From NCBI RefSeq assembly GCF_003334765.1, contig NZ_QOWT01000009.1: a stretch of 64,000 bases of DNA; one strand, 5' to 3'. How positions within the stretch are numbered: the stretch's first letter is position 1; each line of letters begins with the position of its first letter. Below the pieces are notes generated by a model. That model ran no database searches. It had not been told where the DNA came from and was given only the letters and a program-made list of their open reading frames with translations. Positions 9,959-58,555 of the stretch are shown here, in pieces. The position numbers were made by a program, and so were the translations under genes. The stretch is from Escherichia coli. GTDB lineage: Bacteria > Pseudomonadota > Gammaproteobacteria > Enterobacterales > Enterobacteriaceae.

Positions 9959-9989
9959 GCCGGATAAGGCATTCACGCCGCATCCGGCA
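9959..9989. repeat. REP element (single palindromic unit) between tyrB and alr
   Basis: gccggataaggcattcacgccgcatccggca, a REP-type GC-rich dyad. Confidence 0.8.
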
Positions 9990-41378: not shown

Positions 41379-41455
41379 GTAGGCCTGATAAGACGCGACC
41401 GCGTCGCATCAGGCATCGGTTGCCGGATGCGGCGTGAACGCCTTATCCGGCCTAC
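41379..41455. repeat. BIME / REP pair between pgi and yjbE
   Basis: gtaggcctgataagacgcgaccgcgtcgcatcaggc ... gccggatgcggcgtgaacgccttatccggcctac. Confidence 0.9.
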
Positions 41456-43642: not shown

Positions 43643-44992
43643 ATGTCTGAAATTGTTGTCTCCAAATTTGGCGGTACCAGCGTAGCTGATTTTGACGCCA
43701 TGAACCGCAGCGCTGATATTGTGCTTTCTGATGCCAACGTGCGTTTAGTTGTCCTCTCGGCTTCTGCTGGTATCACTAATCTGCTGGTCGCTTTAGCTGA
43801 AGGACTGGAACCTGGCGAGCGATTCGAAAAACTCGACGCTATCCGCAACATCCAGTTTGCCATTCTGGAACGTCTGCGTTACCCGAACGTTATCCGTGAA
43901 GAGATTGAACGTCTGCTGGAGAACATTACTGTTCTGGCAGAAGCGGCGGCGCTGGCAACGTCTCCGGCGCTGACAGATGAGCTGGTCAGCCACGGCGAGC
44001 TGATGTCGACCCTGCTGTTTGTTGAGATCCTGCGCGAACGCGATGTTCAGGCACAGTGGTTTGATGTACGTAAAGTGATGCGTACCAACGACCGATTTGG
44101 TCGTGCAGAGCCAGATATAGCCGCGCTGGCGGAACTGGCCGCGCTGCAGCTGCTCCCACGTCTCAATGAAGGCTTAGTGATCACCCAGGGATTTATCGGT
44201 AGCGAAAATAAAGGTCGTACAACGACGCTTGGCCGTGGAGGCAGCGATTATACGGCAGCCTTGCTGGCGGAGGCTTTACACGCATCTCGTGTTGATATCT
44301 GGACCGACGTCCCGGGCATCTACACCACCGATCCACGCGTAGTTTCCGCAGCAAAACGCATTGATGAAATCGCGTTTGCCGAAGCGGCAGAGATGGCAAC
44401 TTTTGGTGCAAAAGTACTGCATCCGGCAACGTTGCTACCCGCAGTACGCAGCGATATCCCGGTCTTTGTCGGCTCCAGCAAAGACCCACGCGCAGGTGGT
44501 ACGATGGTGTGCAATAAAACTGAAAATCCGCCGCTGTTCCGCGCTCTGGCGCTTCGTCGCAATCAGACTCTGCTCACTTTGCACAGCCTGAATATGCTGC
44601 ATTCTCGCGGTTTCCTCGCGGAAGTTTTCGGCATCCTCGCGCGGCATAATATTTCGGTAGACTTAATCACCACGTCAGAAGTGAGCGTGGCATTAACCCT
44701 TGATACCACCGGTTCAACCTCCACTGGCGATACGTTGCTGACGCAATCTCTGCTGATGGAGCTTTCCGCACTGTGTCGGGTGGAGGTGGAAGAAGGTCTG
44801 GCGCTGGTCGCGTTGATTGGCAATGACCTGTCAAAAGCCTGCGGCGTTGGCAAAGAGGTATTCGGCGTACTGGAACCGTTCAACATTCGCATGATTTGTT
44901 ATGGCGCATCCAGCCATAACCTGTGCTTCCTGGTGCCCGGCGAAGATGCCGAGCAGGTGGTGCAAAAACTGCATAGTAATTTGTTTGAGTAA
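43643..44992 (+). CDS. lysC: lysine-sensitive aspartokinase III (449 aa)
   Basis: Track ORF 449 aa MSEIVVSKFGGTSVADFDAMNRSADIVLSD... Confidence 0.98.
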   Translation: MSEIVVSKFGGTSVADFDAMNRSADIVLSDANVRLVVLSASAGITNLLVALAEGLEPGERFEKLDAIRNIQFAILERLRYPNVIREEIERLLENITVLAEAAALATSPALTDELVSHGELMSTLLFVEILRERDVQAQWFDVRKVMRTNDRFGRAEPDIAALAELAALQLLPRLNEGLVITQGFIGSENKGRTTTLGRGGSDYTAALLAEALHASRVDIWTDVPGIYTTDPRVVSAAKRIDEIAFAEAAEMATFGAKVLHPATLLPAVRSDIPVFVGSSKDPRAGGTMVCNKTENPPLFRALALRRNQTLLTLHSLNMLHSRGFLAEVFGILARHNISVDLITTSEVSVALTLDTTGSTSTGDTLLTQSLLMELSALCRVEVEEGLALVALIGNDLSKACGVGKEVFGVLEPFNIRMICYGASSHNLCFLVPGEDAEQVVQKLHSNLFE

Positions 44993-45244
44993 ATACTGTA
45001 TGGCCTGGAAGCTATATTTCGGGCCGTATTGATTTTCTTGTCACTATGCTCATCAATAAACGAGCCTGTACTCTGTTAACCAGCGTCTTTATCGGAGAAT
45101 AATTGCCTTTAATTTTTTTATCTGCATCTCTAATTAATTATCGAAAGAGATAAATAGTTAAGAGAAGGCAAAATGAATATTATCAGTTCTGCTCGCAAAC
45201 GAATTCCCGTACACTGAACTCTCTGGCTCACTGAGGGCACCATC

Positions 45245-45517
45245 ATGGCACTCCCCCGTATTACCCAAAAAGAGATGACTGAACGCGAGCAGCGTGAACT
45301 TAAAACACTGCTGGATCGGGCGCGGATTGCGCATGGTCGCGTATTGACCAACTCCGAAACCAACAGCATTAAGAAAGATTACATCGATAAATTAATGGTT
45401 GAGCGTGAGGCTGAAGCGAAAAAAGCCCGCCAGTTGAAGAAAAAGCAGGCTTATAAACCGGATCCTGAAGCGTCATTTAGCTGGTCAGCAAATACGTCGA
45501 CGCGCGGCAGGCGCTAA
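45245..45517 (+). CDS. yjbD: uncharacterised small basic protein (90 aa)
   Basis: Track ORF 90 aa MALPRITQKEMTEREQRELKTLLDRARIAHG... Confidence 0.8.
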   Translation: MALPRITQKEMTEREQRELKTLLDRARIAHGRVLTNSETNSIKKDYIDKLMVEREAEAKKARQLKKKQAYKPDPEASFSWSANTSTRGRR

Positions 45518-45566
45518 TCCACAATCAACGCCTGAGATTTTCACTCGTCAGTGTGAACACAATTTT

Positions 45567-45607
45567 CCCCTCACCCTAACCCTTTTCCCGAAGGGGCGAG
45601 GGGACTG
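45567..45607. repeat. GC-rich imperfect palindrome between convergent yjbD and rluF (possible bidirectional terminator or dispersed-repeat member)
   Basis: cccctcaccctaacccttttcccgaaggggcgaggggactg: CCCCTC(A)CCC ... GGGGCGAGGGG arms. Confidence 0.5.
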
Positions 45608-45649
45608 TCCGGGCACTTTTGGGCCGTTTTCATCAGTCTGAGGCGTTAA

Positions 45650-46522
45650 TCAGCGCCCCTTCTTTTTACGCCCCGGCGAGGTAAAACGCTTACCGTTGGA
45701 CGCCGGGCGACCGCCTTTTTCCGCCGTTTTTTCCATCTTAACGACTGGACGTTTGATGCCCGCTGTTTTCGGTTTGGCCTTCGCTTTAGGTTTTACCTCG
45801 GAAGAGGAATTTTCAATGAGCTTAAAGAGGTCGATTAACTCATCGTCGGTTAAATCGCGCCATTCCCCCAGCGGAATGCCGCTTAAGCTAACGTTCATGA
45901 TGCGCGTGCGTTCCAGCTTTTTCACTTCATAGCCGAAATGCTCGCACATGCGCCGGATCTGACGGTTCAGCCCCTGCACCAGGGTAATGCGGAAGACAAA
46001 CGGCGCTTCTTTTTTAACTTTGCACTTTTTGGTCACTGTCCCGAGGATTGGCACCCCCGCACTCATGCCGCGAATAAACTCCTCGGTAATCGGTTTATCG
46101 ACCGTCACCAGATACTCTTTCTCATGATCATTGCCAGCACGCAGGATCTTATTCACCAGATCGCCGTGATTGGTGAGGAAAATCAGCCCCTGGGAGTCTT
46201 TATCCAGGCGGCCAATCGGGAACACGCGTTTGCTGTGGTTAACGAAATCGACAATGTTATCGCGCTCGCCATCTTCGGTGGTGCTTACAATACCAACGGG
46301 CTTGTTCAGGGCGATAAGTACCAAATCTTCGGCTTCCCGAGGTTCAATCAACTGACCGTTTACTTTCACAACGTCGCCGGGTTTCACCTGATCGCCAATG
46401 GTGGCTCGCTTGCCATTAAGGAACACATTGCCTTGCTCGATATAGCGATCCGCTTCGCGGCGTGAGCAAATTCCGCTTTCGCTGATGTATTTATTTAAAC
46501 GGACTGATGAGTCGGGCAGCAT
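45650..46522 (-). CDS. rluF: 23S rRNA pseudouridine synthase F, RsuA family (290 aa)
   Basis: Track ORF 290 aa [33 protein letters not shown]... (S4 domain), catalytic RLDKDSQGL motif, Lys-rich C-tail. Confidence 0.95.
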
Positions 46523-46733: not shown

Positions 46734-47423
46734 ATGGAACTGCTTTTATTGAGTAACTCGACGCTGCCGGGTAAAGCCTGGCTGGAACATGCACTGCCGC
46801 TAATTGCTGAACAGTTGCAGGGTCGCCGCTCAGCGGTGTTTATCCCTTTCGCTGGCGTAACGCAGACCTGGGATGATTACACAGCGAAAACGGCTGCGGT
46901 TCTCGCTCCGCTGGGTGTTTCTGTCACCGGTATTCATAGCGTTGTCGATCCCGTTGCCGCGATTGAAAATACTGAGATCGTGATTGTCGGCGGCGGGAAT
47001 ACTTTCCAGTTGCTGAAACAGTGCCGCGAGCGCGGGCTGCTGGCACCAATTACTGACGTGGTTAAACGTGGCGCTCTGTATATTGGCTGGAGCGCAGGCG
47101 CTAACCTTGCTTGCCCAACTATTCGTACCACCAACGATATGCCGATTGTCGATCCGCAAGGTTTCGATGCGCTAAATCTGTTCCCGCTGCAAATCAACCC
47201 GCACTTCACCAACGCGCTGCCGGAAGGCCATAAAGGTGAAACCCGTGAGCAGCGTATTCGCGAACTGCTGGTCGTCGCGCCAGAACTGACGATTATTGGT
47301 CTACCGGAAGGTAACTGGATCACAGTGAGTAAAGGTCACGCTACGCTGGGTGGCCCGAACACCACTTATGTGTTTAAGGCTGGTGAAGAAGCGGTTCCGC
47401 TGGAAGCTGGTCACCGTTTTTAA
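46734..47423 (+). CDS. pepE: alpha-aspartyl dipeptidase, peptidase E (229 aa)
   Basis: Track ORF 229 aa [30 protein letters not shown]...; S51 peptidase motif GWSAGA. Confidence 0.96.
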
Positions 47424-58298: not shown

Positions 58299-58555
58299 GC
58301 AGAGAATTGCCGGATGCGGCGTAAACGCCTTATCCAGCCTACGTTCGGCAACGGTTGTAGGCATGATAAGACGCGCAAGCGTCGCATCAGGCATCGTGCA
58401 CCGATTGCCGGATGCGGCGTAAATGCCTTATCCGGCCTACGTTCGGCAACGGCTGTAGGCATGATAAGACGCGCAAGCGTCGCATCAGGCATCGTGCACC
58501 GATTGCCGGATGCGGCGTGAACGCCTTATCCGGCCTACAGTCAGCAACGGTTGTT
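58299..58555. repeat. tandem BIME array (about 2.5 copies of a 98-bp unit, each with a REP pair) in the aceA-aceK intergenic region
   Basis: Unit ttgccggatgcggcgtaaacgccttatcc(a/g)gcctacgttcggcaacgg(t/c)tgtaggcatgataagacgcgcaagcgtcgcatcaggcatcgtgcaccga starts at 58307, 58405 and 58503 (third truncated); 3 mismatches between copies 1 and 2. Confidence 0.95.

Follow-up and report, generated by a model that had tools for sequence, protein, structure and literature searches.

The DNA analysed here (the window, a single stretch of 64,000 nt) is Escherichia coli K-12-type DNA, and the part of it under study is the junction between two convergent genes, yjbD and rluF, the identities of which were confirmed from the RefSeq annotation of the identical K-12 sequence. 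The spacer between the two convergent stop codons is exactly 45518-45649, a length of 132 nt, and corresponds to 4,231,227-4,231,358 in NC_000913.3. In window coordinates the genes lie as follows.

43643-44992, plus strand, lysC
45245-45517, plus strand, yjbD
45515-45517, plus strand, yjbD stop codon
45518-45649, no strand assigned, strain-variable block that makes up the whole spacer, delimited by filled and empty alleles and by outgroup comparison
45650-45652, minus strand, rluF stop codon
45650-46522, minus strand, rluF
46734-47423, plus strand, pepE

RefSeq NC_000913.3 carries no annotated feature for the repeat copy described below, scanning 45000-46000 against Rfam with a permissive threshold returned only chance-level matches to eukaryotic families, a literature search found no paper naming yjbD together with rluF, and the supplement of Holder et al. 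(PMC4666352) gives no gene names for the locus. An earlier note had described a G/C-rich imperfect palindrome between the two convergent genes that lacks the canonical REP sequence, and both parts of the description stand: the quoted palindrome is present where it had been placed, with 11-nt arms and one mismatch, and the 23 matches in the window to the REP core (GCCGGATGCGGCG or GCCTGATGCGACG) include 0 within 45518-45649. Canonical REP-core clusters of the BIME-array type are found elsewhere in the window at some ten intergenic sites (clusters at 9976, 22846-22875, 27431-27551, 31659-31743, 36707, 41402-41451, 47464 and 58309-58534), with 3.2 matches expected by chance. Within and around the spacer the following features can be recognised.

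45508-45534, plus strand, left-end hairpin CAGGCGCTAAT / ATCAACGCCTG, an inverted-repeat pair read from the sequence
45524-45537 and 45637-45650, outer inverted repeat, 14 nt with 2 mismatches
45561-45617, minus strand, BoxC core of about 56 nt, the published consensus strand being the minus strand of the window, and the sole dispersed part of the block
45566-45576 and 45594-45604, G/C-rich inverted repeat, 11 nt with one mismatch and 17 nt between the arms
45567-45576, plus strand, C-block 1 CCCCTCACCC, predicted 5' arm of the RNA hairpin and complement of the TMECO third-strand G-block
45580-45589, plus strand, C-block 2 CCCTTTTCCC, the decayed block
45593-45603, plus strand, G-block GGGGCGAGGGG, 3' arm of the hairpin
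45607-45624, plus strand, weak terminator-like hairpin GTCCGGGCACTTTTGGGC followed by CGTTTTCATC, within the 3' extension of the BoxC family
45642-45667, plus strand, junction hairpin GGCGTT-AATC-AGCGCC followed by CCTTCTTTTT, with a terminator-like pattern scan site at 45642-45657

What looks like a 17-nt loop in the palindrome is not a loop, and contains a third, C-rich block at 45580-45589, so that the plus strand reads CCCCTCACCC-TAA-CCCTTTTCCC-GAA-GGGGCGAGGGG, a three-block anatomy. Folding of the RNA bears out the long stem that the earlier note had read from the letters: the whole plus-strand spacer folds at −45.6 kcal/mol (z −2.6, 3 of 200 shuffles being equally good) and the hairpin alone (45560-45606) at −19.7 kcal/mol, again at z −2.6 relative to shuffles. 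At the edges of the block, the left-end hairpin includes at 45523-45532 an inverted copy of the junction sequence, and the junction hairpin on the right is the ancestral stop-codon palindrome itself, a palindromic junction that is conserved across genera. This junction hairpin looks like a terminator for yjbD-sense transcription. The T-run that follows it (CCTTCTTTTT, 45658-45667) is the complement of the C-terminal Lys-Lys-Lys-Gly codons of rluF, and so any yjbD terminator of the allele without the block would have to lie within the rluF coding sequence. At the weak terminator-like hairpin of 45607-45624 no 3' end is mapped in published Term-seq.

The palindrome is the core of a slightly decayed copy of the BoxC repeat, also named the PIT element and TMECO. 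The kind of element is thus already known: the family was found in the 1990s (Bergler/Bachellier), re-described in 2000 as PIT (potential intrastrand triplex; Hoyne and Maher) and again in 2015 as TMECO (Holder et al., PMC4666352). Its consensus is CCCTCNCCC-N3-6-GGGNGAGGG-N3-GGGNGAGGG with 23 copies listed for MG1655 (Holder et al. 2015, PMC4666352, Table 1), and an independent survey describes BoxC as a 56-bp E. coli family of 32 known copies (PMC2267715). Read on the minus strand the yjbD-rluF copy is CCCTCGCCCC-TTC-GGGAAAAGGG-TTA-GGGTGAGGGG, and the strict published pattern finds no match anywhere in the window, since the second block carries two G-to-A changes that make it GGGAAAAGGG where the intact form is GGGGAGAGGG. 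Otherwise the copy has the commonest published form, ‘type A mm’, with a TTA loop and the usual single mismatch. The two middle-block changes also account for its absence from the list of 23 MG1655 copies, which has nothing between 4,070,487 and 4,314,285. Alleles of this locus from two other strains (L003, L010) match the strict pattern, and the yjbD-rluF copy is therefore a decayed member of the family and not a non-member. On the plus strand the changed positions are T45584 and T45586; the intact allele of about 190 genomes has C at both, as does every paralog examined, and on this sequence comparison both T's are derived in the K-12 type. A second decayed copy, GTTCCCTCTCACCCTAACCCTCTCCCCGGTGGGGCGAGGGGAC..., lies upstream of ybdD at about 632,050-632,098 of NC_000913.3 and is likewise absent from the published 23. 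Pattern-based censuses undercount decayed copies such as that between yjbD and rluF.

Dispersal of the motif is invisible from the window itself, where the exact 15-mer CCCTCACCCTAACCC has one match for 0.75 expected, and becomes plain when whole genomes are searched. By blastn all 5,426 complete E. coli genomes searched have matches to the 132 nt, the median number of places being 18 and that of MG1655 being 21; the motif is not unique, and the suggestion in the earlier note that the palindrome might belong to another dispersed repeat family is borne out. The 70-nt centre alone gives an equal count, its matches spanning about 45563-45623, and the two ends of the block (45518-45562 and 45605-45649, 45 nt each) are single-copy and occur only in genomes that have this allele, so the repeated part is limited to the core of about 56 nt. 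An alignment with nine paralogs agrees, with near-invariant columns at about 45561-45617 that include GACYGTCCG after the G-block, and with a weaker similarity out to about 95 nt in a subgroup of copies (ppc-argE, ygfF-gcvP and yihS-yihR). Lying between the two stop codons, the copy is intergenic as the BoxC family always is, and it shares with the family the conserved core of about 56 nt, the strictly intergenic position, a count of about 20 copies per genome and a strain-variable locus. Only 53 of the 90,486 places matched by the 132-nt search are on plasmids.

The full spacer is present in 1,773-1,774 of the 5,426 E. coli genomes, and the remaining genomes that were sampled have a locus shorter by about 132 nt. 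Two empty alleles were aligned, and in both the stop codons abut (...GGCAGGCGC TGA|TTA GCG...). The yjbD locus was fetched from 80 further Enterobacteriaceae species, in 78 of which both genes could be placed, and 75 of the 78 (E. albertii, E. whittamii, Salmonella, Citrobacter, Klebsiella, Enterobacter and Kluyvera among them) have either no spacer (0 nt) or a 4-nt overlap of the stops (TTAA; −4), which makes the empty state ancestral. From these sequence comparisons the 132-nt block is a derived insertion that would have been acquired by an ancestor of some of the present E. coli strains. Only two other species have a spacer: Pluralibacter sp. UBA7423 has an independent 125-nt insertion with REP-like palindromes (GCCTGATGGCGCTGCGCTTATCAGGCCTAC...; L103, 1774-1898), and Enterobacter sp. 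BIGb0383 has 12 nt between yjbD and rluF (L102, 1774-1785). The palindrome formed by abutting stops seems to be a recurrent landing site.

The filled site is bounded by an imperfect direct repeat, for which one or no mismatch in 10 has a chance of about 3e-5 by simple arithmetic.

45510-45519, plus strand, left direct repeat GGCGCTAATC, 10 nt, including the yjbD stop TAA
45642-45651, plus strand, right direct repeat GGCGTTAATC, 9 of 10 identical, running into the rluF stop (TCA on the plus strand)

Some Escherichia empty sites (L026, L027 and L029) read GGCGTTAATCARCGCC, presumed from sequence to be the insertion target, and this target is palindromic over a short length since yjbD and rluF each finish with an Arg codon and a stop. 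The junction GGCGCTAATCAGCGCC, as expected from loss mediated by the direct repeat, is found in 5 E. coli genomes. In the one of these that was examined, Z1323PEC0010 (L107 701-740), the flanks are K-12-like, with 1 difference from K-12 in the nearest 347 nt to the left and 5 in 720 nt to the right, the YjbD protein has the same accession as that of K-12, and the genome is nearer to K-12 here than the common empty alleles are. The five are on this sequence evidence read as probable secondary precise deletions, a surviving target allele being the alternative. About 350 nt upstream of the yjbD stop of Z1323PEC0010 the ungapped comparison with K-12 breaks down, which suggests an indel between lysC and yjbD.

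Filled alleles fall into two haplotypes, the K-12 type in about 1,580 genomes and a second type in about 190, with the BoxC motif intact in the two examples of the latter that were examined. Between the haplotypes 10 of the 132 insert positions differ, the figures for yjbD and rluF being 6 of 273 and 10 of 411, a divergence indicating that the insertion is old and evolves roughly neutrally. Filled alleles end yjbD with TAA and rluF with TGA, and the common E. coli empty alleles end yjbD with TGA and rluF with TAA. The 6-nt centre of the common empties, TGATTA, is the reverse complement of TAATCA, both forms occurring among Escherichia species, and the common empties require that two transitions be assumed, or else that the hairpin loop of 4 nt was inverted. 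Strain ET625 (L106 1154-1851) has an IS1A inside the spacer, just left of the BoxC core, adding 777 nt, which is the size of IS1 plus a 9-bp duplication. What is new here, modestly, is a reconstructed insertion between stop codons that abut, together with the rare precise-loss allele, and the locus offers a natural experiment in near-isogenic E. coli lineages with the yjbD and rluF stops adjoining, 132 bp apart, or joined by the precise-loss junction.

A 10-nt direct repeat around the block, a 14-nt inverted repeat near its ends, and a clean polymorphism of filled and empty sites with apparent precise loss could all be taken to mean that the 132 bp are a non-autonomous, MITE-like transposable element that inserted with a target-site duplication. 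This we consider unlikely, given that the 45-nt ends are single-copy and found at this locus only, so that the 132-bp unit is not itself repeated, and given that the outer ‘terminal inverted repeat’ is mostly duplicated junction sequence. Two other BoxC loci, at which a target-site duplication was sought and none was recognisable, behave differently again, with the BoxC block replacing a whole spacer from stop to stop. Between ppc and argE K-12 has a 349-nt REP/BIME array (L011 3345-3695) and STLEFF_29 a 163-nt BoxC block (L009 324-486) with identical boundaries; between tauD and hemB the 106-nt BoxC spacer of K-12 (L021 348-453; about 3,600 genomes), which runs from stop to stop, has as its alternative, in about 1,800 genomes, an unrelated 39 nt (L105 249-287) that include a small GCCGGGTT/AACCCGGC hairpin. 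Nor is any association with transposases, phages or plasmids reported in the literature, and the few plasmid places noted above speak equally against mobility of this kind. The full 132-nt block was rejected as a repeated mobile element because both of its ends are single-copy.

Published RNA 3' end maps were next set against this anatomy. Those of Adams et al. 2021 (PMC7815308, Supplementary file 1) and of TRS (PMC10687069) give the following ends at BoxC copies of K-12.

45606 of the window, plus strand (4,231,270 of NC_000913.3, minus strand), steady-state 3' end of yjbD-sense RNA, Term-seq in LB at OD 0.4, 42,363 mean reads
3,781,065 of NC_000913.3, plus strand, primary end of lldD
164,636 of NC_000913.3, plus strand
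624,567 of NC_000913.3, minus strand
632,098 of NC_000913.3, plus strand, from the LB OD 2.0 Term-seq

The flank printed with the yjbD end is this BoxC copy, and the end is its 51st base, the final T of GGGGACT, 2 nt beyond the last stem pair, which gives yjbD a 3' UTR of 89 nt that includes the hairpin; of the three growth conditions, only LB at OD 0.4 has this end in its curated Term-seq list. TRS places the primary yjbD terminus at 4,231,269, within 1 nt of the Term-seq end, in a re-analysis of previously published libraries that may not be independent of the Term-seq dataset. In the rluF sense no 3' end is listed in the spacer (4,231,2xx-4,231,3xx, plus strand, three Term-seq conditions), which low expression could explain, and rluF is absent from the TRS tables examined (PMC10687069). 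Of the transcript 3' ends that the earlier note proposed to look for, that of yjbD is thus mapped at the palindrome and none is listed for rluF.

The sequence after the stem is ACUGUCC on the plus strand and AAAAUUG on the minus strand, with no U-tract on either. In the bicyclomycin experiment of Adams et al. (PMC7815308), where a reported position is the most significant point in an 800-nt window and is imprecise, Rho-dependent read-through is found beyond the spacer on both strands. In the yjbD sense it lies at 4,231,091 (minus strand of NC_000913.3; score 4.27, p 2.8e-13), about 45785 of the window and antisense inside rluF, some 180 nt downstream of the 3' end; in the rluF sense it lies at 4,231,569 (plus strand; score 3.15, p 1.1e-5), about 45307 of the window and antisense inside yjbD. 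According to Dar and Sorek 2018 (PMC6061677), a sharp end 1-3 nt after a stable stem-loop that has no U-tract marks an RNA that was terminated by Rho and trimmed by exonucleases, and such stem-loops protect against PNPase and RNase II. At yjbD the same set of features is seen, namely a stable stem without a U-tract, a 3' end at +2 and Rho-dependent read-through downstream, and an intrinsic terminator is not, the pattern scan having no site at the G/C stem and the 3' end not being in a U-tract.

Overall the locus is probably best explained as a BoxC copy, carried on a derived insertion, the RNA hairpin of which protects the 3' end of the yjbD mRNA, and which is not a bidirectional intrinsic terminator. 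The 132-bp block would have inserted exactly at the palindromic junction of the abutting yjbD and rluF stops, duplicating about 10 bp of the junction and so making precise loss possible, and in the K-12 lineage two later substitutions in the middle block would have spoiled the published triplex-forming pattern while leaving the outer hairpin intact. Polymerases arriving from yjbD and from rluF both cross the spacer, as the Rho data for the two strands show. Transcripts of yjbD would then be terminated by Rho inside rluF, in the antisense direction, as the Rho-sensitivity data suggest, and 3'-5' exonucleases would shorten them as far as the stable BoxC hairpin, which as a block would leave the observed end 2 nt after the stem. 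Those of rluF would pass the spacer unstopped and end in a Rho-dependent manner antisense to yjbD. From the published data we infer, for this locus, both the causal part of the hairpin in the yjbD 3' end and the trimming by exonucleases. The BoxC copy likely behaves as a neutral or selfish repeat, with no evidence of upkeep by selection and with an incidental role at the 3' end.

The same sharp and abundant 3' end at the base of the stem could be made in another way, by one-way termination that is independent of a U-tract, or by strong pausing, at the BoxC hairpin, so that the yjbD end would come from release of the polymerase and not from trimming. That the five BoxC ends share one polarity could mean an orientation-specific effect on polymerase, as this proposal would have it. 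It is nonetheless improbable, in that bicyclomycin raises read-through 4.3-fold on the yjbD strand, which implies that many polymerases pass the hairpin, and in that ends 1-3 nt past a stem without a U-tract are the published signature of trimming (PMC6061677).

In the four other K-12 copies listed above the Term-seq end follows the same G-block by 2-10 nt. The strand that reads two C-blocks and then the G-block carries all five ends and the opposite strand none, in what is a small sample, only 5 of about 25 K-12 BoxC copies having such ends. This hints at a possible RNA role of the family that depends on orientation. A link of BoxC hairpins with mapped mRNA 3' ends is newly drawn here and absent from the BoxC literature consulted, a modest novelty that could help to explain a family of long-unknown function. 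Taken much further, and only as a speculation to which we give little weight, BoxC elements would be orientation-specific 3'-end modules and not DNA triplex elements, their spread between convergent genes, and into one site of formerly abutting stops, favoured by insulating and stabilising the upstream message; RNA of two C-blocks and then a G-block may in that case give a defined exonuclease-resistant end to Rho-terminated mRNAs. Along with this, insertion of the blocks could follow an uncharacterised mechanism directed at small palindromes, with duplication of about 10 bp.

Less likely again is a significance at the level of DNA rather than RNA, with an intrastrand, H-DNA-like triplex perturbing replication or recombination and so destabilising the locus. 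TMECO oligonucleotides do form triplexes in vitro, and TMECO loci were more variable than controls among 56 strains (PMC4666352); the yjbD-rluF locus is itself polymorphic, with filled and empty alleles, a precise-loss junction and the IS1A of ET625, and other BoxC spacers are swapped wholesale between strains. However, in vivo footprinting gave no support for a stable triplex (PMC4666352), and the variability may reflect an unconstrained insertion, there being 10 differences in 132 nt and about 2.3% in the flanking genes. With two G's of its middle block lost, the K-12 copy moreover places three mismatches at the centre of the Watson-Crick part of the published triplex; the published fold is expected to be weakened, the copy being if anything a plain hairpin, and a triplex role is least likely for this very copy. 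Folds with DNA parameters of the 39-nt core, G-rich strand, give −9.6 kcal/mol for K-12 and −9.7 for the intact form, and energies so similar make ordinary hairpin energetics uninformative about a triplex.

The other possibility raised in the earlier note, a bidirectional intrinsic terminator in which the G/C hairpin stops polymerase from both yjbD and rluF, would fit a stable G/C-rich stem between convergent genes and a 3' end adjoining the stem on one strand, but is very unlikely and goes unsupported, with no U-tract after the stem on either strand, a pattern scan that finds only two weak plus-strand sites, both outside the G/C stem, a mapped end 2 nt past the stem and not 7-9 nt into a U-tract, an end in the yjbD sense only with Rho-sensitive read-through beyond the spacer on both strands, PIT elements for which PMC4666352, on the authority of Maher and co-workers, reports neither promoter nor terminator activity, and the block missing from about two thirds of E. 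coli and from nearly all relatives.

Biology at large is little affected by the yjbD-rluF copy. REP/BIME elements and BoxC are alike as short dispersed extragenic palindromes, frequent between convergent genes and varying in presence from strain to strain, and REPs make RNA hairpins that block 3'-5' decay and sometimes aid termination (bioRxiv 10.64898/2026.03.23.713779). The two can fill the same slot, as between ppc and argE, yet they are different sequence families and the copy number of BoxC is far lower. To our knowledge BoxC has no dedicated transposase of the RAYT/TnpA-REP kind. The protective 3' stem-loops of Dar and Sorek (PMC6061677) resemble the yjbD hairpin in having a stem without a U-tract, an adjoining 3' end and Rho-dependent read-through; they differ in being locus-specific sequence, whereas the yjbD hairpin comes from a repeat on a recently inserted block. 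Like the block, ERIC/IRU, RUP and Correia/NEMIS elements are small non-coding insertions that end in inverted repeats, are flanked by a direct repeat and are polymorphic for presence. Bacterial MITE-like repeats such as these are often transcribed within neighbouring mRNAs. The yjbD-rluF block departs from them in that only its central 56 nt are repeated, and its ends are unique to the locus.
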